This document shows, piece after piece, positions 6,495 to 30,621 of a stretch of DNA of 41,586 bases. The DNA lies in the NCBI GenBank assembly GCA_947451105.1, contig CANFXY010000004.1, positions 1 to 41,586 on the forward strand. The letters are read 5' to 3'. Origin of the DNA: Bacteroidota bacterium (GTDB taxonomy: Bacteria; Bacteroidota; Bacteroidia; NS11-12g; UBA955). The notes below the pieces were generated by a model. It was given only the letters and a program-made list of their open reading frames with translations. It made no database searches and was not told the origin of the DNA. Every line of letters starts with the position of its first letter. Positions within the stretch are counted from its first letter, which is position 1. The translations under genes were made by a program, and so were the position numbers.

Positions 6495-7208
6495 TTATAA
6501 TATTAAATCAAATAATTTATAGTAAAAAATATCAAGATATAATGAATTTCCTATGGATCTTTTGTAACTTTTATTTTCCTCATTAGGAGGATTTGTCCCA
6601 ATATACTTACTTCCAAAATAATATTTAAAAACGGGAATAAAGCTGCAGCTATCATAATCTATATAATACAAATAATTATATGCTTTTTTGGGAGATGATT
6701 TTAATTCAAGCTTACCTATATCTCCATTTAAAATCTTAATTTTCAAATCATCAATATTCAACAATTCAATTCTATTCTCGAAAAACAACGGGTACATTTC
6801 ATTATTTTTATTAATCTCGATAGCTTTATGTAAAACGCACTTTTCTAATCCTTTTTTAAATATAATCATCCTTACAAGCTCCCCAAATTTGTAGGTGCAA
6901 AATAACATTGTAGAGTCTTCATGATAAATATATTTGTTATTATTGTTCTCTATGACATAATCTTCAAACAATAACTCAGCTTCTTTTTTATAAAAAAATT
7001 GGTATTTATATTCTTTTGAATTATGAAATACAAGATTGATTTTTACTGGGTAACAATTTTCGTTTATTGCAGTGTCAGTTGGCTCCAACAGGAATGTGTT
7101 AAAATAATTAGAAGATTTATTCATACTAGTTTTAACTTGACAAAAGCTAAAAACAAAAATACTAAAAAAGAATATATTTATTTTCATATAATTTTGGAAT
7201 TTATTCAA
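6495..7208 (-). CDS. Putative lipoprotein/exported protein; candidate immunity/partner of the fused Rhs-CT
   Basis: Starts 3 nt after the stop of 7212..11426; MKINIFFFSIFVFSFC lipoprotein-like signal (alternative start 7187). Confidence 0.7.
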   Translation of the reverse strand: MNKFQNYMKINIFFFSIFVFSFCQVKTSMNKSSNYFNTFLLEPTDTAINENCYPVKINLVFHNSKEYKYQFFYKKEAELLFEDYVIENNNNKYIYHEDSTMLFCTYKFGELVRMIIFKKGLEKCVLHKAIEINKNNEMYPLFFENRIELLNIDDLKIKILNGDIGKLELKSSPKKAYNYLYYIDYDSCSFIPVFKYYFGSKYIGTNPPNEENKSYKRSIGNSLYLDIFYYKLFDLIL

Positions 7209-7211
7209 TAA

Positions 7212-10200
7212 TTACGGAGAACTAATCATTTTATTTTTTGGTTTTGATCTCCCTTTTGGTTTTGGCTTATCAACTTTACCGGTATGAATTAAACTGCTCC
7301 CGTTTATCATTGTAACAAAGCTTCCATCATTCCTAATTTTTAGGTTGCCAACCTGTTCTATGCTCTTTCCTTTAGGAGCAGCTTTGGACCATTTTCGAGC
7401 ATTTGAAGTGGCCATTTCTTGATAAGCTGATTCATGACCATCCCACGGTCCTCCAATAAAAAAATCACTAAACAAGCTTGCTCCAAGATATGACTCTCCT
7501 TGATTTCCATATACATTTCTTTTTGTTAGATCAGCAAATTTTTGAATATATTTATCCCCTCCAATTTGATGTGCTGCTGTAAAACAACCAAGTAGAATTA
7601 TATTCCCTGACTCTAATAAATTATTTCCTAAATCCTCTAAAGTTTTAGCTAATAAAACGCTTTCAGAATAGTAGTAATTGCCAATTCCTTGAGCAGAATA
7701 AGTATAAATTCCATGCCCAACAATATACATATTATTGTATGTTTTTCCACTTGTATTTAATTGAATATTTAAATTTTCGATATTGTCTACAACAAGTACA
7801 TCAATATTAGAATTATTCATTGCAGCTTGATAAGCATTATAAAATGTCCCACCTACTTTGGAATCACTTTCACTAAACACTGTTATAGATTTTGCAGTTT
7901 CACCTAGTGGTTTTGCAAAACCCACTGAATCACCGTTTTGGTCAACGAATACAATTGGATTATTTAGAAAGCAAGAATATCCACTTACACCTCTTAAAGA
8001 CTTTGGATCGATGTTAAACCTCCTGCCCAATCGGCTATCGAACTGCCAATATTCTGCAGTATACGAATTATCTTCTCCTGATACTTCATTATCTTTTTCT
8101 TGCCCATTAAACCCAAACCTATATTTACTCGTATCTGCCCCGTCAGAGTAGGCATATTGAAGTTCTGGTATGGAACTTCCGATATTACTATAACTTCGGC
8201 TAACATCAGTGTCGTAAGGGCCAAAGAATTTAATGTAGATGTCTAAGGATTTTTGAAAATACTCTATAGCTTTCGAATATATTTTTTCTCCACTCCATAT
8301 TTTTCCAATTTGTTCGTAATCAAAAGCTACATTTGGATGTTCAATTCCCCAAAATTTCATATCAATTGCCAAGGATTTTTCGGCATACTCCATTGCCAAT
8401 AAATATTCTCCTTTATGATACATTGCACTACCTATCATGTAGTTTGAAACCGATAATTCAGGGTGCACATTACCTAATAGTTTTGCTTTAATATCAAAGC
8501 TTATAAGGTAATTTTCTAATGCATTTTTATAAGTTCCTCTGGCTTCCCATAGACTTCCTATGCTTTCATAGGCGTCAGCTACAAAAATATTTTCTGGCCC
8601 ATAGGTTTTTAAGCGAATCACTAAGGATTTTTGAAGAAATTCCATGGCCATGTCGTATTTATCTTGCCTTTTTAGATTTTTTCCAATTTGCCCATAAGAA
8701 TATGAGATTTTAGGATGTTCAGTACCCAACGATTTTATTTTAATATCTAAGGATTTTTGAAATAGGTCAATAGCCTTACTAATGTTTCCAAAATTGGATT
8801 CAAGAACTCCGATGCAGTCCATTATTTGAAAATCATTTTGCATGATTTCTAGATTAAAATCTAATTTATTAAAGTGTTTTAATGCCTCCTCTTTTTCAAA
8901 AAGATGAATGGCCATTAATCCTAACATGATCGCTTCCTTGCAATCAAATTTATTTAGCGGCATTAATTCACTAAGAAAATCTTTCCGAATAACATGCAAC
9001 TGCAATTCTTCCAACTGCTTATCCAATTTCAACAAAGCCTTCCAATCATTTTCCGTAGGATTTTCTAATATTTTTTCAATTAGTTTTTTGCTGCCAAATG
9101 ACTTTAAATACAAGAGCAAAGGGTTGATGCATAAGTCTATGCCTTCTGTTCCAGAATCTATTAATTCAACAATAAGGCTGATGTCTTCCATTAAAGCCCT
9201 TTCAGATAAGTAATATTCTATGCCGCCCTTGTGAAGCTTGTTTTTGTCTTTTAAAATGGTGTTTATAAAGGCTAACTCAATTTTGTCTTCCTCATTTTGG
9301 AGTTTTTGCCCCAATACATACAACAATGCGCCCTCAACGGTAAAAGCAATGCAGGCGTTTAAGTCTTTCGTGTAACGGCTGATCCAACCTAGGTTTTTTA
9401 ATCTTGGGTAGGGTGAATTGATGTTGTCAGAAACCAGATAATCTTTAAGTGTTTCGTTTTTCAATACATCATCCAGGAACAATTCGTTTTCGCCTTTCTC
9501 CCAAATTTTATTTGCCAATAAGTTAAAAAATATTTGCTCATCTTCAGTGAAGGTTTTTAACCAGTCTTTCCATATATTTAAATGCAGTATGCCTTTTTTC
9601 GGTAAGGACTTTCCATTGTATATTTCTAAAAATATGCGGAGTACTAAGGGGTTGCTAATTTGGTTGTACAGCCCGCGGTCAAAGCTTGCGATGTCATCAA
9701 ATTTGAACTGCGGCTTAAACCTAGACTTGTCCTTGCTGGTGTATTTGTCCCAAGCGGCGTTTAATTCCTTCATGTTCAAAGGGGTTAACCAATTGGCATA
9801 AGCACTTAGGCCTTCTTCGTTCTCGCTTTTTTCTCCGTAAATTTTTTGTAAATCTTCTTCTGATAGGGCATAACGGTTTAAATCCGCTTTTGAATTGGCT
9901 CTGCTGCTGACCACAAATTTTAAACTTCCCGCCTCAAACAACTTCGAAAGTTCTATAATTTCAGTCCAAAGATCCTCTGCATTGTGTGCCTCATTCAGAC
10001 CATCAATCAAAATAAAACAAGGTTCATTTTGAGTGCCTGCAATATTTGTATAGGTTCTTAATTCAGAGGCAAGATCAATATTTAGCAAATAAGCAATCTG
10101 CTCTTTAATTGTTGGCTTTTCCATTCGCCCAGCCCGTATAAGTAGGCTGGGTAAATTCCTTTCATGGTATTGCTTTTGAATTTCTACCAAAAGATTTGTT

Positions 10201-15353: not shown

Positions 15354-17024
15354 TTATAGTTCGTTTAGTTTTTCTAATTTTTCTTTTACACGCATTGTGT
15401 TTGTATGTATTTCACCAAAGGTTTTAATAAAAATAGGCAATGCTTTTAGATAATAGATTTTTGCCAATTCAAAATTCTCCAAGTCTGCATTGCATTTGCC
15501 AATGTTATAATATGAAAAACCAAAAGAAGGGTGGTCTTCTTCGTGGATATCGAGTTTTATTTGCAAGCTTTTTTGAAAATAAACCATTGCATTTTCAAAA
15601 TCGCCAGACTGCTGGTAAACGCCTCCAACATTGCTAATTGTTGATGCATACCAAGGGTGCTTTATGCCATATAACTTTTCCAATATAGCCAATGCTTTAT
15701 TGTTGTGTTCTAGAGACGATTTAAAGTCTTTTAGATTTAAATCTAACATAGCAATATTGTTGTAAAGGGTTGCCGTCCATTTATGGTATTCGCCAAAAAT
15801 GTTTCTGAATATCTTAATGGCTTTATTGAAATATAGCCTAGCCTCAGCATATTTTTTATTGCTGCTAAAGAGCTCCGCAATGTTGTTGTAAGAAATTGCT
15901 GTATCTGGATGGTGTCTTCCGTTTGTTTTTTCTTCTAAATGAATCGATTTATTGTAATAATTTAGTGCTTCATTAAAGTCCCCTTTTTCATGGTGCAATT
16001 GGCCTAAGTTATTGTAGATTTTGCCGATTGACTCATGCTCTAATCCAAAATTTTCTATGTAAATCTCCAATGCCTTCTCGAAGTTTATTTGACTTTCCTC
16101 AAATTTGCCTTCATTCAGCAGAGCACCACCCAGATTGTTGGTAATTTCTGCACTTATTTCAATGTGTACTTCATTTAAAAGATCAATTATGCTTAGTGCT
16201 TTTTTATATGCAAGAATCGATTTATTATAAGTTCCCAAAGCATTCCATTCTGAACCAATATTTTGAAAAAATACCACTGCTTCCTTGTCATAATTTGGAA
16301 AATTTATAGCCGTTAATTGCTCAAGCTTTTCCACTTTCTCATTGGCATTTAAAAATTTAACTGAATGAACAAACAATAGTGCTTTTTTAGGGGTATCTGG
16401 TTCAATAAAATTTAAAACTTCTTTTAAAATAAATCTCAGTATATCACTTTTTTGAAGTTTTTCTAATTTGCTTACAATTTCAAGCAGTAGTTTAATGTCA
16501 TTGTCCGAAGATGTTTCGAATAATGATTGCGCAATGCTTTTTATAGCTTGATTTGTCGAATCTTTACTTGCATTTAAAAAAGCATGGGATAGGGGAACTA
16601 GCGTTGAATTTGTGAACTTCCCACCAAAGTCTACAAACCATAACAATAAGTCAAATTCATGGCTGTCAACTTTTCGAATCAAAAATTGCTCGAACCCTTC
16701 ATTTAAACCTGTTAAATTAATTTTATTAATATATTCGAAAATTTCATTTGCCGTGAGATTTGAAAATCTAGCTTCTAAAACCTCACCCAGCACATAATGA
16801 AAATAACCCTCAACGGTAAAAGTAACATATAACTTTTCATCTCTAATATTTTCTGTTAAAACCCCTTCCAATAGCATTTGTTGATAGGGTGAATCTATTT
16901 GTATGCTCTTAACGAAATCTCCAATTTGTTCATCGTCGAACAGCAAATCCACTGGCAAGATGTGTTGCTCGTGTTGAAGCATGAGTTCAGAAAGGCGGTA
17001 TAGGAGAAGGTGATTAGAGGTCAT
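15354..17024 (-). CDS. Winged-helix-like N-domain + about 7 TPRs (42-aa type); module 3
   Basis: Conserved MTSN...EGYFHYVLGEV N-terminus; YNNLG/HP TPR pattern. Confidence 0.88.
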   Translation of the reverse strand: MTSNHLLLYRLSELMLQHEQHILPVDLLFDDEQIGDFVKSIQIDSPYQQMLLEGVLTENIRDEKLYVTFTVEGYFHYVLGEVLEARFSNLTANEIFEYINKINLTGLNEGFEQFLIRKVDSHEFDLLLWFVDFGGKFTNSTLVPLSHAFLNASKDSTNQAIKSIAQSLFETSSDNDIKLLLEIVSKLEKLQKSDILRFILKEVLNFIEPDTPKKALLFVHSVKFLNANEKVEKLEQLTAINFPNYDKEAVVFFQNIGSEWNALGTYNKSILAYKKALSIIDLLNEVHIEISAEITNNLGGALLNEGKFEESQINFEKALEIYIENFGLEHESIGKIYNNLGQLHHEKGDFNEALNYYNKSIHLEEKTNGRHHPDTAISYNNIAELFSSNKKYAEARLYFNKAIKIFRNIFGEYHKWTATLYNNIAMLDLNLKDFKSSLEHNNKALAILEKLYGIKHPWYASTISNVGGVYQQSGDFENAMVYFQKSLQIKLDIHEEDHPSFGFSYYNIGKCNADLENFELAKIYYLKALPIFIKTFGEIHTNTMRVKEKLEKLNEL

Positions 17025-18714
17025 TGAGTTTGTTTATCTTTTCATTAAGTAGCAATGTATAATGATGTCCTTCGCCTAATTTATCCTTGAATATTTGATG
17101 AGCCTTAGAATAGTAGTTGTAAGCTTTTTGATATTCAAGTTCTAATTTGAAAATGTTGCCGATATTATTGTATGATTTCCCTGTAGCTACATGGGAATCT
17201 CCAAAAGTTTTTGATCTTATTTCAAATGCTTTACAATAATATTCCTTAGCAATTTCACTTTTGTTTTTATTAAACCAAGCTGTCCCTAAATTGTCGAAAA
17301 CTATCGCTGTAAAAGGATGTGATTCACCTTCATTTTTCAATGCAATGATTAATGATTTTTCATAAAAACTAATTGCCATGTCATAATCTTCATTTGAATT
17401 CCATGCAGATCCTAAGTTGTTAAAAGTTGTTCCTGTTAATGGATGCTCACTGCCATATACCATGATATCAATTGCTAAAACTTGCTCATGATAGGATATC
17501 GCTTTCTTGCACTCACCTTTTTCATTTAATGCCAAAGCTATATTGTTGTATACAGTGCTAGTTGAAGGATGTATTTTTCCGCAAACCTTTAAATGAATTT
17601 GTAATGATTTTTCTAGATAATCAATTGCTAAATCATATTCACCTTTTTCAATTAATGTCAATCCTAAATTGTTATAAATTTCCCCAATAGATATATGTTG
17701 ATGATCATGAGAATTTGTTAGGATTTCCAACGATTTTTTATAATATTCTATGGCTTTATCATAATCACTCTTGTCACTCCAGCAATCACCTAATTTGTGG
17801 TAACATCTGGATATTGATTGATGTATATTTCCGTGAATCTTCTGTGCAATATTCAATCCTTTTTCAAAGTATTTAATTGCTGTTTCATGTTCTGCTATAT
17901 TTTGAAATTGTTGCCCTAATGTGTAAAAAAAATAAGCTAATTCTTCGTTCTTTTTAAGTCTATGTGATTTGTCGATTAGCTGATCTAGTTTTTCTCGTCT
18001 TTGATTGAATGGTATGTAATTTATAGACTTTATATAGGCATTAGCTTCAAATAAATTAGTTGGCTCTATAATCTCATTAAACCTTTTATATATAGTTGCA
18101 ATATGGTCATGTTTTTGGATTCCCTCTAAATGTTTAATCGTTAATTCAAGTACATTGAAATCGTTTGTGCTTGGAAGATTAAATAATTCATTTAGAACTC
18201 TATTTATTTGTGTTGCATAACCTATATCAGTATTTTCTTCGGAATTGATTTTTTTTTCAGATTGTAAAAAAGCATATGAAAGAGGAACAATACATATTTC
18301 TATGTGTTTTCCTCCGTAGTCAATCAACCAGATCAATCTTGTAAAATTATCCATTTCAACATCCCGAATCAAACACTGCTCAACCCCTTCCTTTGCGCCA
18401 TTCAACTTATTCTCCTCAACAATTTGCTTCAAGGCCTCAGCACCCAATCCTTCAGTTTGGTTGTATATAACCTCGCCCAACACATAATGAAAATAACCCT
18501 CCACGGTAAAACTTATATATAATTTTTCATCTCTAACAGATTCTGTTAAAACCCCTTCCATGAGCATTTGCTGGTAGGGTGAATCTATTTGAATACTCTT
18601 CACAAGATCTCCAATTTGCTCATCATCAAAGAGCAAATCCACTGATAAGATGTTTTGCTCATGTTTAAGCATCAGTTCTGTAAGGCGGTGAAGGAGGAGG
18701 TTGTTAGAGGTCAT
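17014..18714 (-). CDS. Winged-helix-like N-domain + about 7 TPRs; module 2
   Basis: 70 of the first 82 residues identical to module 3 (hand count); overlaps each neighbour by 11 nt. Confidence 0.88.
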   Translation of the reverse strand: MTSNNLLLHRLTELMLKHEQNILSVDLLFDDEQIGDLVKSIQIDSPYQQMLMEGVLTESVRDEKLYISFTVEGYFHYVLGEVIYNQTEGLGAEALKQIVEENKLNGAKEGVEQCLIRDVEMDNFTRLIWLIDYGGKHIEICIVPLSYAFLQSEKKINSEENTDIGYATQINRVLNELFNLPSTNDFNVLELTIKHLEGIQKHDHIATIYKRFNEIIEPTNLFEANAYIKSINYIPFNQRREKLDQLIDKSHRLKKNEELAYFFYTLGQQFQNIAEHETAIKYFEKGLNIAQKIHGNIHQSISRCYHKLGDCWSDKSDYDKAIEYYKKSLEILTNSHDHQHISIGEIYNNLGLTLIEKGEYDLAIDYLEKSLQIHLKVCGKIHPSTSTVYNNIALALNEKGECKKAISYHEQVLAIDIMVYGSEHPLTGTTFNNLGSAWNSNEDYDMAISFYEKSLIIALKNEGESHPFTAIVFDNLGTAWFNKNKSEIAKEYYCKAFEIRSKTFGDSHVATGKSYNNIGNIFKLELEYQKAYNYYSKAHQIFKDKLGEGHHYTLLLNEKINKLNDL

Positions 18715-20233
18715 TGAGTTCTGATATTTTATCTTTTATCAATTTGGTTGTAGAATGATTAATCCCTAATAATTGTTTGAAAAGGCTGTACGATTTTTTA
18801 CAGTTCTTTCTTGCATTTGAAATGTCATTATTATTTTTTTGAGACATTGCAAGATTATACAATATCGTAGCTGTCATTACATGGCAATCTCCATTTATTT
18901 GAATTGAGTATGTTAACGATTTACTGTATTTCGTTACGGCATTTTCGTATCTTTCTTCATACTTGTAAACCACTCCTAGATTGTTCAATGTTACTATAAT
19001 TGAAGAATTAGGCTCGTTGAAAATATTTTCTTTAATTCTCAGAGCCTCTTCGTAACAATGAATTGCCAATTCATATTCTCCTGATGACCTATAAACTAAA
19101 CCAAGATTATTATAACTTGTTGCTGTAATCTTATCAAAACTACCAAAGTTTTCAAGAGTCAGCTCAAGAGATTTAATTTGGTATTTTAATGCTGTGCCGT
19201 AAGATTCCTTTTGGCGGTATGCCTCTCCAAGTGTCGAATAATTACAATCTTTCTCATAATAATTTTGAATCGATTGCTTATTTATAATCTTGTTAGATTT
19301 TTTCGCATAGTAAATAGACTTTTCCAAATCATCCTTGTACAAACTGACTTGAGCCATGTGCATGTAAATTTTAACTTTTAATGGTTCATTTAATTTTACC
19401 TTTTTTAAAGCCACAGCATAAAGCGAAAACGCATTTTTGTAATCTGAAATGAGTTCGTATTGATATGCAAGAGCGTAATAAAAATCTGACGGCACACCTT
19501 TAAGTGAAACCAACTTTGCTTTGAGCGAATGCAATCTTTTTTTTCTCGTAACGGGAGAAAGGTATTCGAGCGAATTTATGATTAACATATATTCTTCAGG
19601 TGTTTTTGGACTCAGAAATCTACATAAAAAATTACAAATAACTTCTAAATGCTCTATTTTATTGTATTTCTCGAGCATTGAAACTGCATCTGAAATCACA
19701 TCGATATCTAACAAAGAATAATTCTTAAGCAGCTTTTTTAAAATATTTCGAATTTCTTTTTGACGACTTTTAAAACTACATTTTAAAAATGCATATGCCA
19801 AAGAATTTACACATACTTCAGTAGAATTTGACAAATTGTCTATTAACCAGATCAAACGGGATAGATTATCCTTCTGAACATCCCGAATCAAACACTGCTC
19901 AACCCCTTCTTTTGCACCGTTTAATTTATTATGCTCTATTATTTCTTTTAAATATTCAGCGCTTTTTCCCTCAGATTTTGCATAAATTACCTCCCCCAAC
20001 ACATAATGAAAATAACCCTCTACAGAATAACTTACATACAACTTTTCTTCTCTAACAGATTCTGTTAAAACCCCTTCCATGAGCATTTGCTGGTAGGGAG
20101 AATCTATTTGAATACTCTTTACAAAATCTCCAATTTGCCCATCGTCAAACAGCAAATCCACTGGCAATAGGTGTTGCTCATGTTGGAGCATGAGTTCGGC
20201 AAGATGAAAAAGTAATTTATGATTATCTGTCAT
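18704..20233 (-). CDS. Winged-helix-like N-domain + about 6 TPRs; module 1
   Basis: Same N-domain; shares LNGAKEGVEQCLIRDV with module 2; in frame with the upstream ATPase. Confidence 0.88.
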   Translation of the reverse strand: MTDNHKLLFHLAELMLQHEQHLLPVDLLFDDGQIGDFVKSIQIDSPYQQMLMEGVLTESVREEKLYVSYSVEGYFHYVLGEVIYAKSEGKSAEYLKEIIEHNKLNGAKEGVEQCLIRDVQKDNLSRLIWLIDNLSNSTEVCVNSLAYAFLKCSFKSRQKEIRNILKKLLKNYSLLDIDVISDAVSMLEKYNKIEHLEVICNFLCRFLSPKTPEEYMLIINSLEYLSPVTRKKRLHSLKAKLVSLKGVPSDFYYALAYQYELISDYKNAFSLYAVALKKVKLNEPLKVKIYMHMAQVSLYKDDLEKSIYYAKKSNKIINKQSIQNYYEKDCNYSTLGEAYRQKESYGTALKYQIKSLELTLENFGSFDKITATSYNNLGLVYRSSGEYELAIHCYEEALRIKENIFNEPNSSIIVTLNNLGVVYKYEERYENAVTKYSKSLTYSIQINGDCHVMTATILYNLAMSQKNNNDISNARKNCKKSYSLFKQLLGINHSTTKLIKDKISELNDL

Positions 20234-20239
20234 CAGAAG

Positions 20240-22699
20240 CTATTGTGAAATCAATTTCTCATGGTACAACGACCAAATGCTGATAAATCCACCACGGCTC
20301 TTTGGCAAGCCTTTGCCATTGTTTAATTCGAGGAACAAACGCAGCAATAGTGGATTGTCTAATTGGTCGCTTAAAGAACGGTCGTGGTAGGTCAGTTCTT
20401 CATAAGAAAAATTTGGTTTGCGTCTCACCTTATCTTGCTTATCATTTACATACTTATTCCATGCCCCTTCTACCTCAACTTTATTCAGTGGTTTTAACCA
20501 ATAGCAAGATTTAGCAATGATATTTTCATCATTGTTGTTTTCCTTGGCATCGCTGTATATGATAGACTCGAATTTGTCATCGGCTTGCGGCAATTCATTT
20601 TTGGTATTCACCCTCCAACTTAATACAATTTTAATGTGCCCACCTTTATGCTTGTCTAAAAACTGAATAATTGAATCGAAAAGCACTTTAGGATCAGAAT
20701 TTTCATTTGCTCCATCAATTAGAATCATTAAAGGATTCTCTTGTTCATAGCGAACGAAATTTGCCTCTTCAAAAGAACTGTCTGCTGTTAAATTTAATCG
20801 ATAGCACAATTCTTCCCAAATATCAGGCGTTCTAAAACGATTGCCCCTTAGTAAAATTGTGTTTAAACCACGTTCTTGATACTGTCTATTCATCTCAACC
20901 AATAAATTGGTTTTCCCACTTCCCGCTTCAGCTGAAAGAAAAAACAAACCAGCTCTTGCGCCAATCCAAGACCTTAGAGCAACTTCTGCATCTTGTCTCT
21001 CTTGGTATATGCCCTTGATAACTTTCTTTTCAGTCAGTAATGATTGAAAAGTTGCCTCGTTATTTTCTTTCAAAACGGCTTTCCAACTTACTTCGTCCAA
21101 ATCTTTCATGTAAGCAGGTTCTTGCTTCTCTTTATCTCGAATCATTAGATTCAGCTGATCTAACACTTTTTCATTGTTTGTTTCACCATGAACGCTTTCA
21201 GGGCTAAAGAATACGATACGGCTTCCTGTGTTTTGCTCATAGACCATTAGTTTTGCTCGGTCAGAAACTTCTTTAATGAAATATTCACCAGGCAATATAA
21301 AAAATGGTACAATGCTTAACTCTTGGTTGTCTGAATTCAATATCGCCACATTGGATTTTAATTTTTGCCTTAGATTAATTTGTGTAATTTCATCCCCCAT
21401 TAAGCGCCATGCAATTGTTTTATCGCTGCTCACAATGTTGTAGTTTTTACAAAAATCCATTTTCAGTAACAGCGCTTTTAACAATTGAAAATGCTCATTC
21501 CACAGCTGATTTGATTGGCTTTCATTAGGAACTGTTCCATGCCCTAGATAGTGGTTGCGAAAATTAATGAGCTTGCCTATTGCGGTTTCCCCTTTTTCGG
21601 CATATGGTTTTGTTTCTACTTCATTGTAGTAATCTGGTAATTCCTTAATAAACCAAGAATATTGATGCTCATTCAAGGCCTGTATTGCACTGCGCATAAA
21701 GGCGTTCCAATGACCAAATTGAGGACGGTAAAGGAAACTTTTAAAAGCGCGGTTGATTTCACCAATTTTTAAGTCACTGTTGAAGTATTCTGATGCGGTA
21801 AGTAAACCTAAATATTTTAAGTAGTTTAACAAGACCTCTTTTAATAAGTGAAGTCGCTTAAACCCATCTTCTTCCTCTAAGGCACGTTTGTATGGGTGTG
21901 CCAAAAAATAAGGGTAGCTGCTTATTATCTTATTGTCATTTGAATCAATATTTATCTTTGTTGTTGCTTCCAATGAATCTTCTATACTTACTTTGTCAAC
22001 GGATAGTTGGATTGCGGATTCAAATGGAAATAGCTGATTCTTGAAACTTAAAACAATAGAGCCATTGCAAACCTTGTCATGTCCATGAATGCTTTGATTG
22101 TTTGATGAGTCAGTAAAAGTTAGTTCTGAAAAGGTGTCTAAGGATTCAATGAATGAGTTTAAAATTGGTTCGTAAGATTCAAAAATTTTCTTACTTTCAT
22201 TTTCTGAATAAACCGTTCCATGGCCGACATATTTATTTCTAAAATTGATTAAAAGCTCTACAGGGGTATTGTTGATCTCAAGTATTTGTTTCTTGCCTTT
22301 GCTGTCAATTACAGTGTGCTTAACTGTCATTCTTTTAATAGACGCTTGTTTTTGGAACTTTATTGAGACACCAAAAAAACTTGCTAATTCAGGTGATAGC
22401 AATTCAGAATCGCGCGCATCTAATTCTTGTATTATTTTTGTTATAGTAGAAGTCCATAATCCATGGCTGTCTTTTATCAATAGGGAATCAATTGATTGTT
22501 GCAGGGATTCGTTGATCACTTCTTCTCCCTCTGCTATTGCAATTAGTGCATAACCATATAGCCTAAAGCATCCTAAAAGTACATCTGAAATTAGATGCAA
22601 TTTTTTAAAATAATTACTCGAATTATATAGTTTAAATAAAGGTAGTGAAATTTGGACTGGAATCTGCTCTAAATTCTTAGGTCCTATAGTTGTGTTCAA
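20240..22699 (-). CDS. Tandem HEPN-like domains + NACHT-type STAND ATPase lacking its winged-helix/TPR part
   Basis: LINFRNKYVGHG and LINFRNHYLGHG; Walker A AEAGSGKT; Walker B MILIDGANE; NPLLLR; paralog of the N-terminal part of the 1404-aa protein. TTG start is uncertain. Confidence 0.85.
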   Translation of the reverse strand: MNTTIGPKNLEQIPVQISLPLFKLYNSSNYFKKLHLISDVLLGCFRLYGYALIAIAEGEEVINESLQQSIDSLLIKDSHGLWTSTITKIIQELDARDSELLSPELASFFGVSIKFQKQASIKRMTVKHTVIDSKGKKQILEINNTPVELLINFRNKYVGHGTVYSENESKKIFESYEPILNSFIESLDTFSELTFTDSSNNQSIHGHDKVCNGSIVLSFKNQLFPFESAIQLSVDKVSIEDSLEATTKINIDSNDNKIISSYPYFLAHPYKRALEEEDGFKRLHLLKEVLLNYLKYLGLLTASEYFNSDLKIGEINRAFKSFLYRPQFGHWNAFMRSAIQALNEHQYSWFIKELPDYYNEVETKPYAEKGETAIGKLINFRNHYLGHGTVPNESQSNQLWNEHFQLLKALLLKMDFCKNYNIVSSDKTIAWRLMGDEITQINLRQKLKSNVAILNSDNQELSIVPFFILPGEYFIKEVSDRAKLMVYEQNTGSRIVFFSPESVHGETNNEKVLDQLNLMIRDKEKQEPAYMKDLDEVSWKAVLKENNEATFQSLLTEKKVIKGIYQERQDAEVALRSWIGARAGLFFLSAEAGSGKTNLLVEMNRQYQERGLNTILLRGNRFRTPDIWEELCYRLNLTADSSFEEANFVRYEQENPLMILIDGANENSDPKVLFDSIIQFLDKHKGGHIKIVLSWRVNTKNELPQADDKFESIIYSDAKENNNDENIIAKSCYWLKPLNKVEVEGAWNKYVNDKQDKVRRKPNFSYEELTYHDRSLSDQLDNPLLLRLFLELNNGKGLPKSRGGFISIWSLYHEKLISQ

Positions 22700-23236: not shown

Positions 23237-23626
23237 TCACATCAAAAAATATAAGAACCAATTGATCTGTTCTCTTGACCAATTGTCAATTCGAGCAATT
23301 ATTTTGTTAGAACTGTCATAAATGTAGTTTCCATCTATTCGCCATAGCTGCTGGTTTGAACCGTTGTAAAAGTAGTTGCCGTCAATTCTTCCTATTATTT
23401 TATTGTTTTGGTCATACAAATAGCTGCCAGACTTTCTTCCAATTTGTTTATTGCCTGCATCATACAAATAATTGCCATCAGATCGGCCAATAATACGGTT
23501 GCCTGCATCGTAAAAATAATTACTGCTCACCCTTGCTAGTATTGTATTAGAACTGCTGTATAGGTATTGGGCATTTATGTTTCCTGAATAGAAAAACATT
23601 GTAATTAGTATGGCGACTGTTCTCAT
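23237..23626 (-). CDS. Secreted protein with six 16-aa beta-hairpin repeats (beta-flower-like)
   Basis: Signal peptide ending INA-Q; repeats of the form Y[LFI]YDxxNKxIGRxDGN; -7 box TATTTTTG at 23652-23659. Confidence 0.8.
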   Translation of the reverse strand: MRTVAILITMFFYSGNINAQYLYSSSNTILARVSSNYFYDAGNRIIGRSDGNYLYDAGNKQIGRKSGSYLYDQNNKIIGRIDGNYFYNGSNQQLWRIDGNYIYDSSNKIIARIDNWSREQINWFLYFLM

Positions 23627-23771
23627 TGCTTTTTTGATGTAGGTATAAATACAAAAATAAGTTTACGCCTTGGAAATGTTATTTTTATTTTTAATCATTT
23701 AATACCAAGCCCGAGGATTTAGAATTAATATTTTAAATTATATTGCAGTCCTTAAAATTGCTGCAAATTCA

Positions 23772-25169
23772 TTGGCGAAATCAAAGTTAAATATAGAAGA
23801 AGAACTTTCCCGTTGTGTCAATCAATTGTTGTTGCAGGAACCATTCTATGCCCACGTTTTGGCAGGAACCGTGCGTGCAATTACAGATGAGGTGCAAACT
23901 GCTGCAGTGGGTTTTAGAAACGAGCTCATTATGTTGATGGTGAATGAGGACTTCTTTCTTAAAGAGCTTAAATCAGCTTACCAACGCACTGCCGTTCTCA
24001 AGCACGAGGTTTTGCACTTGGTGTTTAGACATTTGTTTAGAGATAAAATAAAAGAAGATCCTGAACTCTTCAACATTGCGGCAGACATTGTGGTGAATCA
24101 GTATATTGGCCAATGGGAATTGCCAGACTCCGCTGTTACCATTGAACGTTTTCCGGATTTAAATTTAAAAACGGAGCAAAGCCTAGAGTATTACTATGAT
24201 ATTTTATCACAGCTGCAAAAATCCATTGATCAATCCAAATCGCAACAAGAATTAGATTCGGGCAATGGAGGCGATTCAAACGGTGGATCAGGAGGGTCGC
24301 AGGGCGACAAGGGTGGTTCAGGGTCTAAAGACGATTCATCTGGGCCTGAGAAGGGCAATAAACCAAAACAAAAGGAGACTGAAAAACCCCTCCATGAGCA
24401 GGCGCCCATAAGTGCTAGCGCCTTAGAGCAAATATATGGACAAGTAAGACACGGCGACCATTCAAAATGGGTGGTGAAAGATGGGTCAAATGCGTATACA
24501 GCAGATGGAAAGTCTATTCAAGGCAATATGGTTTCAGGCATGGAAACCATGACCGATAAAAGTATTTTGGATGCAGTGCAGCGCATGCCTTCCAAATATT
24601 ATGGAACATTGCCTGCTGGGGTAATCACGCAATTGGATGCCATCCGCGAATCCATGAAACCCAAGTTGGATTGGAAAAGGGTTTTGCGCTTGTTTTCAAG
24701 TTCAAGCGGCAGAACGGTTGTATACCACAGCATGAAGCGCATCAGCAAGCGATATGGAACAAGACCCGGAGTGCGCATCAAGCAGTATAAAAAAATTGCG
24801 GTTGTGGTAGACACCTCAGGTTCTATAGATGAGAAAACGCTAATGTTTTTTTTTACAGAAATAGAAGCCATTCGCCGCAATGGTGCTGAGGTTACAATTA
24901 TAGAATGTGATGCGGCAGTTGGTAATGTATATCCGTATAAAAAGTCTGCAAACATTAAAGTTACAGGTGGTGGTGGAACCAATTACGACCCAGCTTTTGA
25001 ACACATCAACGCGAATCGAAATTTAAGGATTGATGCGTGTGTGTATTTAACGGACGGCTATGCGCCTGAGCCACAGATAAAGCCAAGATGCAAACTCTTA
25101 TACGTCATAACGCCTGATGGGAAACTAGGTCCTCATCTTAAATTTGGCAAGGCGATTAAAATGAATTAG
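23772..25169 (+). CDS. HExxH metallopeptidase-like + vWA protein (DUF2201-like)
   Basis: LKHEVLH, FNIAADIVVNQ, Gly/Ser linker, MIDAS VVDTSGS, GGGGTNY, YLTDG. Confidence 0.88.
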   Translation: MAKSKLNIEEELSRCVNQLLLQEPFYAHVLAGTVRAITDEVQTAAVGFRNELIMLMVNEDFFLKELKSAYQRTAVLKHEVLHLVFRHLFRDKIKEDPELFNIAADIVVNQYIGQWELPDSAVTIERFPDLNLKTEQSLEYYYDILSQLQKSIDQSKSQQELDSGNGGDSNGGSGGSQGDKGGSGSKDDSSGPEKGNKPKQKETEKPLHEQAPISASALEQIYGQVRHGDHSKWVVKDGSNAYTADGKSIQGNMVSGMETMTDKSILDAVQRMPSKYYGTLPAGVITQLDAIRESMKPKLDWKRVLRLFSSSSGRTVVYHSMKRISKRYGTRPGVRIKQYKKIAVVVDTSGSIDEKTLMFFFTEIEAIRRNGAEVTIIECDAAVGNVYPYKKSANIKVTGGGGTNYDPAFEHINANRNLRIDACVYLTDGYAPEPQIKPRCKLLYVITPDGKLGPHLKFGKAIKMN

Positions 25170-28100
25170 ACCATCTTTCTGTGAAAAAATGATAAGGGTT
25201 AATAGATGACTGCCAGTCAATATTGTCTTGTAAATGTGCTTGGAAGTCTGCTTTTTTAAGAAAACATTTAGCAATGTACAAATTGTCTATGTGCATATTG
25301 TCGAGTGCTTTAACGTCTTTAAGATTGTCCATCTGCGATACATCTAGTATGTCCAAATGTTGTAAATGCTCAATGCCGTCCAAGCTGCTAATGCCTGAGT
25401 TTTCTTTCAAAGAAAGCCTGCGGAGTTTCTTTAAGTTTTTAAGTGGCAAGAGTGATTTGAGTTCTGGACCATATAAAATGAGGTATTCTAATTCAGGAAA
25501 TTGTTCTATACCGCTAAGGTCATTAATTTTGCTTAATTCAAGTCTTTTCAGTGAATTGATAGGGATGTCTGATCTTAGTTTCTTTACTTCTGCACTTAAT
25601 TCAATTGGATTGAGATGCAATATGTCATTGAAGTCTTGCAAATTTGGGCAATTGTCAAAATGCATGTTAAGGGCACTGTTTCCAAGGGTTTCAATTTGTT
25701 TTAAACCTTTTAAGTCGAGCAATTGAGGACAATGACCACAATTAAAATCTAAAAGTGTTTTAACGCCTTTCAAAATTGGGAATGAAGATATGGCCGTTGT
25801 CGTCAAATTTAATGAATCAATGGTTTCTGAAAACAGAGAATCAGATATTTCCTTTAATTTACTGTTATGTCTCACATCGATTCTTTTTAAAGAAAGAACT
25901 TCAGGTGCGAGTTCCAAACGTGTTATCTCACTTTCAAAGATTTTTATTTCTTCTAATTTGTAAAGATTAGCAAGTGGTTTTGAGTCTGTAAAAGGCAGTC
26001 TGTTAAACTCAAGGATTTTAAGTTCAGTGCAATTTTCAATGCCATCAATATTCTTAATAACCGTAGCGGAATCAATCTTTAAAACTTCAAGGTTTTTTAA
26101 TTGTGAGAGTTCTTTAAGATCGGTAATGGTGTTTTCTGCTATTTTTCCTACTAGCAAAGTCTTTAGGTATGTCATGTCTTTGATGCCATTAAATCCATTG
26201 CTGAGGATAAATGCGTTGGCATCTATATACTCCAATTTTGTGCAGTTTTTAAAGACATCAAAGTTCACTTTGTAGTTTTGCCAAGAAGCGCGATTGCGAA
26301 TGATTAAGTATTTTAAATTGGGTAAATTGATTTCACAATCTACAAGATCAGTATCTGGGATGCTTAGAGAACGCAAATTGCTAAAATGGTCTATACCAAC
26401 AAATTTTTGTGTTTCAAGGTTTAATGCAACGATTTTTTCATTAAAGGTTTTCCATTTGTTGATTTTACTGGCCAATTTAAGCACGCTTAAAAGGGCATAG
26501 TTTAAGTATGGTTGTGCAGGACTGGTACCTTTAAATATTTTATTGGGTACAATTATGTCTTTCTTGTAATCTATTTCTATGCCATCAAGAAGTGAATTTA
26601 TGATTGTTTCATCTTCCAAACTTTCTAAAATAGACAGGCCCAAATCAACAGATTCATAACTTCTTTCTTGCAGCAGTTTTTTGATTTTTGGAATTTGCTT
26701 TTTTAAGGCGCTTGCTTCTGGATCGGCTTTTATTTTCTCTAACTTTTCTTTAAATGTTTTGGTGTCTAATTTATAAAATTCGGCAAGTTTCAATTGGTAA
26801 GAAAATACCTTTTCTTTTTGAATGCGGCCATTTTCTCTTGGTTTTATTTCTAAAAGCTCACATTCGCTAATATCAAGTGATTCTAGGGTCTTTATTTGAG
26901 CTATTGAGGAAACGTTCTTCAGAGCCTTTAGGTTGTTCAATTGAAGTGACTGAAGCTGATTTAGCTTTGCTATAGCGCTGATATCAGACAGTCCAGTATT
27001 TTCAATTAGTTTTAAGACTTGTAGCTTTGGGAGATTCTTTAAACCACTTAAGGTTTCAAGGTCATAGTTTTTCGACAGTAATATGGTACTTAGTTCTGGG
27101 AGTGATTCTAGAAAATTTGCATCGGTGAATAATGAATCTATTATTTCAATGTCTCTAATTTTTGAAGCATGAAAATTAAAATTACGACACCCTTCAAATA
27201 CAAATTTGCAATTCATTTCACCTTCATATTTAAGGTCAACATCGCAATTGTTTAGATAGATTAAATTTAAACTTTTGCTTGTGAATACATCATGCAGCAC
27301 CTCGCTGTTAAAGCCGTTGTAAAATTTAATCTCTCTTAACTTATGGAACTTGGAAAGATCGCCTAACTTGCGCAATGCGGGTAGTTTTTTGACGCCTAAA
27401 ATTGTTGTTTTTTCTGCAATGTTTTTGTTTTGCGTCAATCCTTCCAAAGACTCAAGTTTATCACATTGACGTATAACAATATCAATAATGTTGCCAAGGA
27501 ACTCACATTCTTTAATTTCCGTTAAAGCATGACATTCAGTTATAACTATGCTCTGTAAATCGCTTAGGTTTTCTATGCCTTTTAATTCGGTTATTTCACA
27601 TTTATTTAGCTCCAATGATTTTAGCTTAGGCACATACTGAAGTCCACCAATATCCGCTAATGAATTGCAAGTAATACATAGGCTACTCAGATTTGGGTAG
27701 CCTTTTAACCAATCTAAATTTTGCATGCCTCTGCATTCGATGTTAATCTGTGTAACGGTTTCAGAACCTATGCCCTCAGGATTGTTCCATTCGTCTATGA
27801 TTAAACCAATGTCAATGCCTGAGTTAATAAATAATTCATGATTGGAACTACAGGCGCTTAATTCAATATGTTTGTCTACAGATGTTACATTCTTTAGCGA
27901 CTTAATGCCACCCAAGGCTTTAACGTTTTTTATTTGGGGACAATCATCTATGATTAGATTTTCTAAAGATTGGTAAAATTCAAGGCCATCTAAGTTTTCT
28001 AAATGATAGTTATCAATAATTTTTAGTTCGCTTGTGTCATCTTTATCCACTTTTCCTTTTAATGGCAAAAAACTTTTTAATTTTCTGATGTTTTTAAATC

Positions 28101-29490
28101 GAAAAGACTCAATTGGAAAACTTGAAATTCTCTCTATGTCTTCTATGCGGTTACACGCTGAAATGTCAATTTTTTTCAGCGTCATATTGGGGTCCAATTC
28201 ATTTAAATTCTTGATGAGGCCATTGGGGTCTTGCAGAATTAAGGATTCTAGAGACGTAAAGCAATGCAAATAACTTAGCTTGCTGATTTCTAAATTTAAA
28301 GTTTGTGTGTTTTGTTTAATTTGCTCAGCCAATTTGGCCTCTGGTCCTGCGTAAAACAAAATAGCCGTAACAATGTAGTTGAGCAAAGCAGGTTCTATTT
28401 TTAGGCCTTTGCCCAATTCTTTAACATTGAAAATATCATTTTTGATTTCAACTTTTTCGAGCAGTTTATCAAAGAGGCAGGGGTCATCGCTGTATGCAGC
28501 AAGAATGGAAATGCCTGCTTCAACGATATTTGGGTCTGGGTTTAAAAGCAGTTTTTTAAGTTTGCTAAATTCTTTGCTATTTGAAACAATTGAGTTGTCA
28601 ATAATTTCTTTTGAATAGGTGCTTGCTTCAGCTTCGTTTTTAATTTCTTTTGCGGATACAAATACCTCGTTGTCTAAGAAAATTTGAAGTGCCTCCGCTG
28701 ATAGCGCTTTTACCCCTTTTAAAGAAATGTACGAAAGGGAATCACTGCAAAGATTTTTTGCACATTCATTGCTGATTGATTTCAAAGAATCTAGGAACAG
28801 TTCACTAACTTTTCCTAGACCTAATGCTTCCTTTTCGCCAAGTTCGCTGATGCCATTTAAACGGAGGGAAGTAATGCCGGTTTCGGCAATTACACTTGAT
28901 AAAGTTTCATCAATAAATTTAATGCGGCTCAAATTGACTTTTTCTCTGTTGTTCTTCAAATAGACTTTCGCTGCAAATGAACAAAAACCTTGCAAATCTT
29001 GTAAAAAACTTGTTTTGGTTTCAAAGTCTCGACTTGCCATCATTTGGACTATACAAGCGATAAGTTCAATATGCGTTTGTGCATTTGTTTCTGGAAGTTT
29101 TAGGTCTGGAAAAAGTGCTTTTAATTGACTCCAATGGTTCTCATTTGTTTTTAAATTTAAACCATTTATAAATGCACTTGTCTGAACAATTCCATCGGAG
29201 TCAATAATTGAACTATGCTTTATACTGGATTCGAAAAACTTATTCGGATCGATGCTGCTACTTTTGCTAAGAACTTGTTTTAAATCAGCTCCGAATGTGT
29301 TCTTGAAGGCTATAAAAAAAGTCTTACTATCTGGGTAATATGGACTATTTTGAAAATGAACCGATACCTCACAGCTAATTCCTGTCTCAGGTTTAATTAA
29401 AACCGTATAAATTCTTTGGTGTGGGGTGAAGTTTATATTAAAGAAATACAGGCCGGGAGCTGCTGATTCCAGATAGTTTATCCTTTCCAT
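25156..29490 (-). CDS. Large leucine-rich repeat protein
   Basis: Many LxxLxxLxxLxxLxL units in two blocks, each preceded by a similar helical cap; no signal peptide. Confidence 0.88.
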   Translation of the reverse strand: MERINYLESAAPGLYFFNINFTPHQRIYTVLIKPETGISCEVSVHFQNSPYYPDSKTFFIAFKNTFGADLKQVLSKSSSIDPNKFFESSIKHSSIIDSDGIVQTSAFINGLNLKTNENHWSQLKALFPDLKLPETNAQTHIELIACIVQMMASRDFETKTSFLQDLQGFCSFAAKVYLKNNREKVNLSRIKFIDETLSSVIAETGITSLRLNGISELGEKEALGLGKVSELFLDSLKSISNECAKNLCSDSLSYISLKGVKALSAEALQIFLDNEVFVSAKEIKNEAEASTYSKEIIDNSIVSNSKEFSKLKKLLLNPDPNIVEAGISILAAYSDDPCLFDKLLEKVEIKNDIFNVKELGKGLKIEPALLNYIVTAILFYAGPEAKLAEQIKQNTQTLNLEISKLSYLHCFTSLESLILQDPNGLIKNLNELDPNMTLKKIDISACNRIEDIERISSFPIESFRFKNIRKLKSFLPLKGKVDKDDTSELKIIDNYHLENLDGLEFYQSLENLIIDDCPQIKNVKALGGIKSLKNVTSVDKHIELSACSSNHELFINSGIDIGLIIDEWNNPEGIGSETVTQINIECRGMQNLDWLKGYPNLSSLCITCNSLADIGGLQYVPKLKSLELNKCEITELKGIENLSDLQSIVITECHALTEIKECEFLGNIIDIVIRQCDKLESLEGLTQNKNIAEKTTILGVKKLPALRKLGDLSKFHKLREIKFYNGFNSEVLHDVFTSKSLNLIYLNNCDVDLKYEGEMNCKFVFEGCRNFNFHASKIRDIEIIDSLFTDANFLESLPELSTILLSKNYDLETLSGLKNLPKLQVLKLIENTGLSDISAIAKLNQLQSLQLNNLKALKNVSSIAQIKTLESLDISECELLEIKPRENGRIQKEKVFSYQLKLAEFYKLDTKTFKEKLEKIKADPEASALKKQIPKIKKLLQERSYESVDLGLSILESLEDETIINSLLDGIEIDYKKDIIVPNKIFKGTSPAQPYLNYALLSVLKLASKINKWKTFNEKIVALNLETQKFVGIDHFSNLRSLSIPDTDLVDCEINLPNLKYLIIRNRASWQNYKVNFDVFKNCTKLEYIDANAFILSNGFNGIKDMTYLKTLLVGKIAENTITDLKELSQLKNLEVLKIDSATVIKNIDGIENCTELKILEFNRLPFTDSKPLANLYKLEEIKIFESEITRLELAPEVLSLKRIDVRHNSKLKEISDSLFSETIDSLNLTTTAISSFPILKGVKTLLDFNCGHCPQLLDLKGLKQIETLGNSALNMHFDNCPNLQDFNDILHLNPIELSAEVKKLRSDIPINSLKRLELSKINDLSGIEQFPELEYLILYGPELKSLLPLKNLKKLRRLSLKENSGISSLDGIEHLQHLDILDVSQMDNLKDVKALDNMHIDNLYIAKCFLKKADFQAHLQDNIDWQSSINPYHFFTERWSNSF

Positions 29491-29502
29491 GTAATAAATT
29501 GC

Positions 29503-30621
29503 TTATAAACTTGCCAATAATAGTTTTGCCAATTTCTTGTCTTTCAGCATGTCTTTTACCTCTGGTTTAGCTTCTTTATTTAGGTCCATAAAAAAGCTCA
29601 TTTTAAGATCGTTTGGAATAGAATCCAACAGAATAAAGTCAACCAAGTTTACTTTATGCTTGTCCTCATTTTGGTAATTATCGTTTTTTAAATGCAAATA
29701 AAGTCGTGTGCAAATTGTAGCAATTCTGTCTACTCTTTTTTCGCCATTTTTCCCAACAGCAATTGATTCCATACGTTCTTTTATGGTTTTAAAGTCCTCG
29801 GCATTAAGAATGTCAGAAGGGTCAATTAATTGGGTTAAATCGTTGTTGATAAAACTCACAAAACTGCTAACGGTGGTATCGTCTAATGCGCTTTTGGCAA
29901 GGGCTACAACCAAATCTAGTTCCGCTTTAAGGTCTTGTATCTCGTGGATTTGGTCAAAAAACTGAACCAAACTTCTAGGGGTGGTACGCTTGCCGGTAAC
30001 TGCCTCTGGGTAGGTTAATACAAAATCAATTCCTCTTTTATCAATGCCTGCACTATGCGCCCATTCGGCCCATGCACGCGCATCAAAACTAAGAGAAATA
30101 TGCAATAGCCTGGTTAACATGGCGTCGTCCATAGGCGTCACAGAATAATCGCCATCATCCGGATTTGCAGTTGCAACAATTTGCCATTTGGCAGGAAGTG
30201 CCCATGAGAGCAATTCAAAGTTTTGCAACAATTGCATCACCCCTCTTAATATACGGTCATCAGCACGGTTAATATCATCCAACAATAAGATGCCTGGACC
30301 TTCTTCTTTTGGCACCCATTCTGGCGGACTGTAAACGGTGTATTCATCGCCTTGGATATTGCCATCAGGGTCTACAATCATTGGCATGCCATGCAAATCG
30401 CCCATTTCCTCAAACTGAGCGGGTGCGCAATAAGCCATTTTCCAATTGTTCTTTTTGGCGTATTCGAACACCGTTTGAGTTTTTCCAAGACCATGGCTAC
30501 CCCATATCATAATTGGGGTTCCCCTTTGACCTTTTTCGTGCAATTGGTTGTTGCGGTTAAAGATATGCTCTAAAAACTTGTTGAGCTGATTGGTGTTTAC
30601 ATTTTGGCCTATTTTTGACAT
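29503..30621 (-). CDS. MoxR-like AAA+ ATPase
   Basis: Walker A GSHGLGKT, Walker B LLLDDINRA, sensor ATAN, arginine finger MLTRL; the family is typically paired with DUF2201-like vWA proteins. Confidence 0.88.
   Translation of the reverse strand: MSKIGQNVNTNQLNKFLEHIFNRNNQLHEKGQRGTPIMIWGSHGLGKTQTVFEYAKKNNWKMAYCAPAQFEEMGDLHGMPMIVDPDGNIQGDEYTVYSPPEWVPKEEGPGILLLDDINRADDRILRGVMQLLQNFELLSWALPAKWQIVATANPDDGDYSVTPMDDAMLTRLLHISLSFDARAWAEWAHSAGIDKRGIDFVLTYPEAVTGKRTTPRSLVQFFDQIHEIQDLKAELDLVVALAKSALDDTTVSSFVSFINNDLTQLIDPSDILNAEDFKTIKERMESIAVGKNGEKRVDRIATICTRLYLHLKNDNYQNEDKHKVNLVDFILLDSIPNDLKMSFFMDLNKEAKPEVKDMLKDKKLAKLLLASL

Follow-up and report, generated by a model that had tools for sequence, protein, structure and literature searches.

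We describe here a four-gene operon in the genome of a Bacteroidota bacterium (GTDB lineage Bacteria; Bacteroidota; Bacteroidia; NS11-12g; UBA955) that appears to encode a divided form of a receptor ATPase of the STAND type. The stretch analyzed, hereafter the window, is one whole contig (CANFXY010000004.1, 41,586 nucleotides) of a metagenome-assembled genome (MAG; GenBank assembly GCA_947451105.1, 2.76 Mb, 86%-complete). Four co-directional open reading frames (ORFs) lie back to back on its minus strand at 15354-22699, i.e., the gene for an ATPase and then three genes for proteins with TPR arrays. The reading that we favor, to which we assign a probability of roughly 0.65, is that the operon specifies a STAND receptor split at the hinge between helical domain 1 (HD1) and the winged helix, in which one executor ATPase would be served in trans by alternative subunits that each combine a winged-helix lid with a sensor. 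A modular receptor of this kind, with several sensors controlling one ATPase in trans, had been proposed in an initial annotation of the window, and it has since gained support from a survey of related loci, a model of the complex, the predicted fold of the modules and a docking surface that the modules share. Feature coordinates are collected in Table 1.

The split junction in the window and in relatives

The point at which the receptor is divided can be read from a second protein encoded in the window, the 1404-amino acid paralog P0005, which carries the corresponding domains in a single chain; P0005 marks the split point but is not a member of the operon. In BLASTP comparisons, ATPase residues 210-809 align with P0005 residues 10-619 (231/622 identical, 37%, E 4e-126), and the alignment stops at the IW of "...FISIW" in the ATPase and "...LNIW" in the paralog. 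Residues 5-479 of module 2, the second TPR protein, align with P0005 residues 635-1085 (138/480 identical, 29%, E 6e-45), and the interval between the two aligned pieces amounts to about 15 residues in P0005 versus about 18 positions across the split. Since the ATPase and module 2 match consecutive parts of P0005, the operon is collinear with the fused protein. The initial annotation had taken the end of the ATPase as a split point defined by the fused paralog and had matched the N-termini of the TPR genes to the next segment of that paralog; the match to P0005 does end at residue 619 and is taken up by the modules from residue 635 onward, and the motifs that had been quoted for the modules, IDSPY and [FY][TS]VEGYFHYVLGE, are present in them. 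The ATPase itself ends in ...HEKLISQ-TAG, with neither a winged helix nor repeats. At the other end of the protein, homologs have an M start at the equivalent position, though the window gene begins with TTG. A second BLASTP segment joins ATPase residues 10-207 to P0005 residues 55-249 (E 4e-14), and, on the alignments, the N-terminal domain of the ATPase is duplicated, with two copies versus the single N-domain of P0005.

The ATPase and module 1 of the window share one reading frame with only a TAG and six nucleotides between them, an arrangement that could have pointed to a nonsense mutation or to read-through; judging by the relatives, it is incidental. Among the best 120 of 393 homologs, 119 are 784-861 amino acids long, i.e., of split length, and the one fused exception (P0023, 1388 amino acids, 77% identical) has the junction LISQ-LA-MTNNH. 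Junctions were compared in two sets of loci, a genome-collection set of 13 loci from freshwater Bacteroidota genome records, 12 of which contain the junction, and a metagenome set of 16 loci retrieved with a Kelch-like module as query, in 11 of which the 3' end of the ATPase gene is present. All 12 genome-collection junctions have a stop straight after the ...LISQ codon (TAA in nine, TAG in three), followed by spacers of 0-8 nucleotides that leave module 1 out of frame in nine and in frame in three. The metagenome loci are split in ten cases out of 11, with spacers of 4-14 nucleotides; the sole fused one, L030, has an ATPase that is 65% identical. With both sets pooled, the stop falls at the equivalent point in 22 of 23 readable junctions, with spacers of 0-14 nucleotides and varying frames. 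By this comparison the split is a conserved gene structure rather than damage. Relatives that are always fused and have no extra modules, the outcome that the initial annotation had named as fatal to its proposal, were not found in the survey, where the split is retained and the number of modules ranges from two to four.

Two explanations would make the split either apparent or accidental. A TAG read-through or a frameshift could rejoin the ATPase and module 1 into a classical single chain, and both the shared frame in the window, where only the TAG and two codons intervene, and the natural fused junction of P0023 are in keeping with this. In the genome-collection set, however, the frame is kept at only three of 12 junctions, and so recoding is effectively excluded; most of the stops in that set are TAA, the ten split metagenome loci add further spacers of differing length, other long ORFs in the window also end in TAG, and recoding could not join modules 2 and 3, which have 11-nucleotide overlaps and other reading frames. 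We consider recoding very improbable, and we find it still harder to credit that a fused gene was broken by a nonsense mutation or by the assembly, with the tandem TPR genes as its decaying copies. The latter would fit the incompleteness of the source MAG and the single TAG between the frames, but the split recurs in independent assemblies, split length prevails among the best protein clusters and purifying selection is evident in all parts of the operon (see below). The junction survey thus contradicts both explanations.

Proposed lid-sensor modules and their turnover

In an AlphaFold2 (AF2) model of module 2 (pLDDT 90.7), the N-terminus consists of helices at residues 3-18, 25-29, 35-39 and 46-52, a hairpin at 56-69 and a helix at 72-87, so that residues 3-87 are predicted to form a winged-helix pattern, with a helical region and TPRs after it. 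All three window modules match TPR_12 (E 4e-27 to 1.9e-74); the superstructure-forming repeats that characterize the C-termini of STAND proteins are thus present, but encoded in trans. A Foldseek search with the module model returned TPR proteins only and was therefore no test of the winged helix, a profile of the family alignment run against solved structures was swamped by TPR matches, and phmmer with the NTPase-winged-helix part of the paralog returned nothing at E <= 10. A search with module residues 1-150 drew 623 protein clusters of 393-894 amino acids; the name of one of these module homologs refers to an Aquirufa isolate, and a carrier in culture may thus exist. The docking domain (residues 1-88) averages 76-81% identity between any two modules, within or across arrays, versus 19-85% for the sensor parts, much as would be expected from the earlier claim that a conserved docking domain is carried by different sensors. 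The figure of about 85% identity that the same annotation gave for the N-domains of modules 2 and 3 was slightly high, as we measured 80% over residues 1-88 and 64% over residues 1-150, and the strong divergence that it noted for the TPR arrays holds, the sensor parts of the window modules being 24-30% identical. Some modules of the family carry a Kelch-like beta-propeller after the TPRs (Pfam 41.5 bits against a gathering cut-off of 50, E 1.2e-10), and this module type is found at array position 1, 2 or 3 depending on the locus.

Where the flank permits counting, arrays hold two modules (L015, L021, L032 and L033), three (the window, L012, L016, L019, L022 and L028) or four (L018). Consecutive modules are joined by the 11-nucleotide overlap ATGACCTCTAA, which occurs twice in the window and also in L010, L011, L012, L016, L018 and L019. 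One of its frames reads ..NDL-stop and another MTSN..; such overlaps fit coupled translation of the modules. The ..NDL tail of non-terminal modules thus shares its bases with the MTSN start of the next gene, and the last modules of related arrays have other endings (...IKIK, ...KGEV, ...IRGS). The overlap, and not a function of the protein, may therefore account for the conserved module tail.

The closest relative of the window operon, L019, has an ATPase that is 90% identical to the window's and shares its flanking genes. Its third module is orthologous to module 3 of the window (85% identity in the sensor part), and the sensors at positions 1 and 2 are only 19% and 23% identical between the two loci. 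The module 1 sensor of the window is 81% identical to that of the second module of L018, an array whose ATPase is only 75% identical to the window's. For this pair of modules the synonymous divergence (dS) is 0.35 in the sensor, and the synonymous sites of the docking domain are saturated, a contrast that hints at a breakpoint between docking domain and sensor. Remnants are found at the ends of two arrays (L012 17966-18052, 28 codons; L015 16364-16507, 47 codons), and L008 has a 183-amino acid ORF (5077-5628) that corresponds to the docking domain alone; we take such truncated module starts to be footprints of cassette loss or exchange. The modules thus vary between close relatives, shift in array position and leave remnants, from which it follows that the cassettes turn over.

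Within this changing repertoire each part of the operon is under constraint. Over docking-domain codons 1-85, the three window modules differ from one another by dS 0.7-1.0 and a nonsynonymous divergence (dN) of about 0.1, and their likeness is therefore due to purifying selection on duplicates that are old. Recent gene conversion was considered as a cause of this likeness and rejected at such dS values. Between orthologous modules of different genomes dN/dS is 0.20 and 0.32 for the sensors, and for the docking domains of window module 3 and the third module of L019 it is 0.06. The ATPase gives dN/dS of 0.04-0.16 between genomes, the comparison of the window ATPase with that of L018 having been dropped as invalid, since indels had shifted the two sequences relative to each other.

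Domains of the ATPase and predicted docking

The ATPase has the P-loop NTPase core of a STAND protein, with a conserved Arg following strand 4 in addition to the Walker A and Walker B motifs. In 47-48 aligned sequences the GSGKT of Walker A (593-597, G593 included), D662 and R696 show no or almost no variation. The succession of nucleotide-binding domain (NBD), HD1 and winged helix that is typical of the STAND class is not found in one polypeptide here, only in the modelled pair of ATPase and module. Matches to the NPHP3_N and AAA_22 families of Pfam are at or below the cut-offs (NPHP3_N 18.2 and 25.4 bits vs 24.8). The paralog scores 16.8 bits against the NACHT model (PF05729; cut-off 26.7), and the ATPase has no NACHT match. 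The Avs2 model of PADLOC matches ATPase residues 513-698 only (E 1.4e-12), and the match covers model positions 272-463 of 1504 rather than the full length with its sensor.

The N-terminal part of the ATPase (residues 1-530) is modelled by AF2 as two helical domains and a beta-rich linker (pLDDT 93.2, pTM 0.90). In domain 1 the R, N and H of the RN-x4-H motif are each invariant (21/21 aligned sequences), and in domain 2 the counts are 54/54 for R, 54/54 for N and 53/53 for H; the Rx4-6H motif that marks HEPN domains is thus present in both (R154-x5-H160; R381 and H387). By VIA-align, residues 246-421 match Roquin N-terminal/ROQ-domain entries (Z 9.2 and 8.6), which stand amid unrelated helical bundles and together with the 8xdj HEPN toxin (7.4), 1wwp (7.2), sacsin HEPN (6.8), Csm6 (6.4) and LsoA (6.2). 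For HEPN-like domain 2 the ESM Atlas offered unnamed clusters only (best 0.91) and an RnlA-toxin_DBD lead at 0.78, which is uninformative. Both HEPN-like domains are probably RNase domains.

The initial annotation had suggested a prediction of the complex between the ATPase and the N-domain of each module, and a single such job was run, with ATPase residues 520-819, module 2 residues 1-200 and alignments supplied for both. The interface score (ipSAE) was 0.64, 0.68 and 0.64 in three runs against 0.01 for the best of three controls, with at least 72% contact agreement and a partner pLDDT of at least 73. The mark applied is one that 58 of 80 solved complexes and two of 110 mismatched pairs reach, a calibration that holds only roughly for this pair because our own alignments were used. 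Module residues 2-8, 49-55 and 70-78 (including the invariant E72, G73 and H76) contact the ATPase in the model, and on the ATPase side the interface comprises P-loop residues 592-593, R696 and the C-terminal helix 805-819, so that the winged helix is predicted to sit on the P-loop pocket. In the closed state of a STAND protein the winged helix occupies that same place over the pocket. The common docking surface that had been proposed for the modules is borne out to the extent that 17 of the 22 predicted interface positions are identical in all three window modules. Since the two chains are the halves of a split gene, the pass shows a likeness to known STAND folds and is not proof of binding.

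Family, neighborhood and interpretation

The NTPase was found in eight of 191 genomes of the host order and in three of 32 other genomes of the genus, and 400 further genomes, sampled evenly from the rest of the phylum, gave no NTPase match at E <= 1e-20. Six genomes of the order are of the split type, each with one ATPase frame of 830-888 amino acids, and fused forms of 1175 or 1404 amino acids are encoded by the genome of the window itself and by G137 and G142. A single genome has up to three module matches. With the exception of L019, flanking genes vary between loci. For the wider family, 150 representatives at 50% identity were listed, of which 52 without an NTPase match over 150 amino acids and 16 that are N-terminally short were set aside. 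The 82 that are left include 66 fused proteins (at least 400 amino acids after the NTPase), 63 of them with one N-domain, two with two and one with none detected, four of split type, all with two N-domains, and 12 with intermediate tails that are probably cut ORFs. Because fused clusters thus outnumber split ones (66 vs 4), the split form is taken to derive from the fused HEPN-STAND-TPR family.

Table 1. Coordinates of the operon, its domains and junctions, and the fused paralog in the window
Feature	Position	Strand	Description
Executor ATPase gene, TTG start	20240-22699	-	819 aa; HEPN-like 1, HEPN-like 2, beta-rich linker, STAND NTPase (NBD + HD1)
Sensor module 1	18704-20233	-	509 aa; predicted winged helix (1-88), helical region, TPR array
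Sensor module 2	17014-18714	-	566 aa; predicted winged helix, helical region, TPR array
Sensor module 3	15354-17024	-	556 aa; predicted winged helix, helical region, TPR array
HEPN-like domain 1	22085-22672	-	residues ~10-205; motif R154-N155-x4-H160; helical bundle in AF2
HEPN-like domain 2	21440-21952	-	residues ~250-420; motif R381-N382-x4-H387
Beta-strand-rich linker domain	21170-21439	-	ATPase residues ~421-510; AF2 secondary structure
STAND-type P-loop NTPase	20243-21082	-	Walker A GSGKT (593-597), Walker B ..ILIDG (D662), R696, HD1 with NPLLLRLFLEL
Split junction CAA TAG CTT CTG ATG	20231-20242	-	stop, 6-nt spacer, module 1 start, same frame
11-nt overlap ATGACCTCTAA, modules 1/2	18704-18714	-	..NDL-stop of module 1 / MTSN.. 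of module 2
11-nt overlap ATGACCTCTAA, modules 2/3	17014-17024	-	identical to modules 1/2 overlap
Fused paralog P0005	7212-11426	-	1404 aa; CxxC..CxxC, one HEPN-like domain, NTPase, winged helix, TPR, extra C-terminal region

Other conflict-type genes and an integrase gene lie in the neighborhood of the operon. Upstream of the operon (23237-30621) lie genes for a Bflower_2 beta-flower protein, a DUF2201 vWA-like/metallopeptidase protein, a 1444-amino acid leucine-rich-repeat protein and an AAA_5 (MoxR-like) ATPase, a set that also flanks the operon in L019 and that may form a conflict system of the vWA-MoxR type. The C-terminal ~360 amino acids of the fused paralog (7212-8300) include a stretch similar to the RHS-associated core tip (TIGR03696, residues 1099-1165, E 4.9e-6, 27 bits vs a cut-off of 32.5) and, after it, a DUF4347-like region (E 1.9e-4, below cut-off), so that the protein resembles a STAND receptor to whose end a tip in the style of polymorphic toxins has been added; directly downstream of the paralog is an ORF for 237 amino acids (6495-7208) with no Pfam family. 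A tyrosine recombinase gene (Phage_integrase, E 3.2e-10) is found at 2270-3316, near the left end of the contig, and a scan of the window for tRNA genes found none. The 2812-amino acid protein encoded at 30888-39326 is unrelated to the operon; it carries 14 or more PKD repeats together with a CHU_C type IX secretion signal, and is thus a secreted or surface protein. Promoter-like sites are not commoner in the window than in shuffled sequence (48 vs 38.5 +/- 7.2), and the one terminator-like site in the window is on the strand opposite to the operon. Contigs from four DNA runs that were compared with the locus are short and of low depth; among those listed none extends across the boundary from the ATPase to module 1. 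Two joints that are each backed by a single contig (sides of 20 and 29 nucleotides) are too weak for use.

In the mechanism that we envisage, each executor molecule would be capped in trans by one module, the winged helix over the nucleotide pocket being the off state. Capture of a ligand by the repeats of the module would release the lid, whereupon the freed NTPase would exchange its nucleotide and oligomerise, and the pair of HEPN-like domains would cut RNA and so stop the infected cell. One executor could in this way serve several specificities, and new specificities could arise by exchange of cassettes at the conserved docking-domain DNA, with the executor untouched. We infer all of these steps, those after docking from what is known of single-chain STAND proteins, and likewise the binding of the proteins in the cell, the use of all modules and the immune role of the system. 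The wider proposition, that a HEPN-ATPase executor is licensed in trans by any lid-sensor cassette, so that one operon yields a combinatorial repertoire whose specificities change by cassette swapping, has in our estimate an even chance of being right. As a corollary, the uncapped executor may be active by default, and the modules may be antitoxin-like guards as well as sensors.

Two other explanations accept the split and dispute its use. The operon could encode a non-immune signaling ATPase of the MalT/AfsR kind, in which TPR subunits would adjust RNA turnover in response to ligands or proteins of the cell itself. The Nature 2026 paper describes STAND clades as alternating between defense and regulation, TPR subunits are generic protein binders, and the known defense-system models go unmatched here beyond the partial Avs2 match in the NTPase; but the patchy distribution of the NTPase, flanks that differ between loci, the fast turnover of the sensor repertoire, the HEPN-like effector motifs, and an integrase and other conflict-type genes nearby all speak against a regulatory role, which we consider unlikely. 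Rather unlikely, too, is the idea that a single module, probably the first, does the work and the rest are a reservoir of spare cassettes for recombination, like the silent cassettes of antigenic variation. Such a reservoir would account for the shifting of cassette positions between relatives and for the truncated remnants at array ends, and a 60-nucleotide stretch of the docking domain that is 98% identical between modules 1 and 2 is a possible substrate for recombination. Against it, every module is a complete ORF with a start codon, the downstream modules are tied to one another by the conserved overlap typical of coupled translation, dN/dS is 0.20-0.32 for the sensors and about 0.1 for the docking domain in every copy, 2 and 3 included, and no invertase or recombinase gene lies beside the array, the nearest being the integrase gene noted above.

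The trans-acting receptor that we prefer has its own difficulties. The fused P0023 and L030 are natural single-chain forms amid split close relatives, and so the split is not obligatory; one of these two carries a TPR plus Kelch-like sensor. The pass of the complex model may stem from the model's memory of single-chain STAND structures, conservation at the interface (0.83) is hardly higher than in the rest of the docking domain (0.79), and the invariant H76 of the modules is not shared by the fused paralog. Support for the HEPN fold is moderate: VIA Z scores of 6-9 are in the range that helical bundles reach by chance, a Foldseek search of the PDB with the model of ATPase residues 1-530 found nothing at E <= 0.001, and Pfam gave no meaningful match for the isolated N-terminal domains or the linker. 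An immune role is argued from architecture, patchy distribution and neighbors, and no RNA sequencing run containing the locus is listed. All of these points weigh against our interpretation.

The fused HEPN-STAND-TPR architecture is already known, and Table 1 of Anantharaman et al. 2013 (PMC3710099) includes HEPN fused to "STAND-ATPase, TPR, S1". Fused proteins of this type, the 1404-amino acid paralog among them, have the same domain order as the window system, homology over the full length and an invariant RN-x4-H motif, but consist of a single chain that has one sensor and, as a rule, a single HEPN-like domain. The window operon is unlike them in being cut after HD1, in its doubled HEPN-like domain and in having the lid plus sensor in two to four genes. 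The logic of an effector, a STAND NTPase and a repeat sensor is also shared with Avs proteins such as Avs2, which are activated by oligomerisation according to two reports (PMC13601566, PMC13581612). Avs proteins are single chains, however, and the window ATPase has no match to the Avs2 sensor or effector.

The NAIP-NLRC4 inflammasome and the sensor/helper (NRC) NLRs of plants offer a parallel in function, since in both cases diversified, duplicated and fast-evolving sensors feed one conserved executor. Those sensors are complete NLRs with an NTPase of their own, whereas the window sensors have no NTPase and appear to complete that of the executor. A constant core with exchangeable specificity parts that are bounded by conserved sequence is familiar from the tips of polymorphic toxins and from the HsdS subunit of type I restriction systems; in the window operon the exchanged unit would be a receptor lid plus sensor, and no dedicated recombinase is seen beside the array. 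In the literature, the supplementary STAND-clade tables of the 2020 and 2026 papers not being covered, we found no STAND protein that is divided between HD1 and the winged helix and has several sensor genes, and an earlier mention of the split multi-sensor form is possible. Split forms are easy to miss, as is illustrated by the criteria for the sensor analysis of the 2026 STAND census (PMC13581612), which omitted C-terminal regions of less than 400 amino acids and clades lacking sensors of at least 400 amino acids.

On the current understanding of STAND and NLR proteins, lid and sensor belong to one chain, and the nucleotide pocket stays locked by the winged helix until a ligand binds to the fused sensor. 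If our interpretation is correct, the winged-helix lock would operate between polypeptides, and these bacteria would have arrived at a network of many sensors and one executor without duplicating a dangerous effector. The operon would also be a ready-made modular scaffold, in which an exchange of sensors could be used to ask how ligand binding is signaled to the NTPase, and on which one could measure what it costs to leave the executor uncapped, with the fused P0023 and L030 as useful controls for the comparison of split and fused forms.

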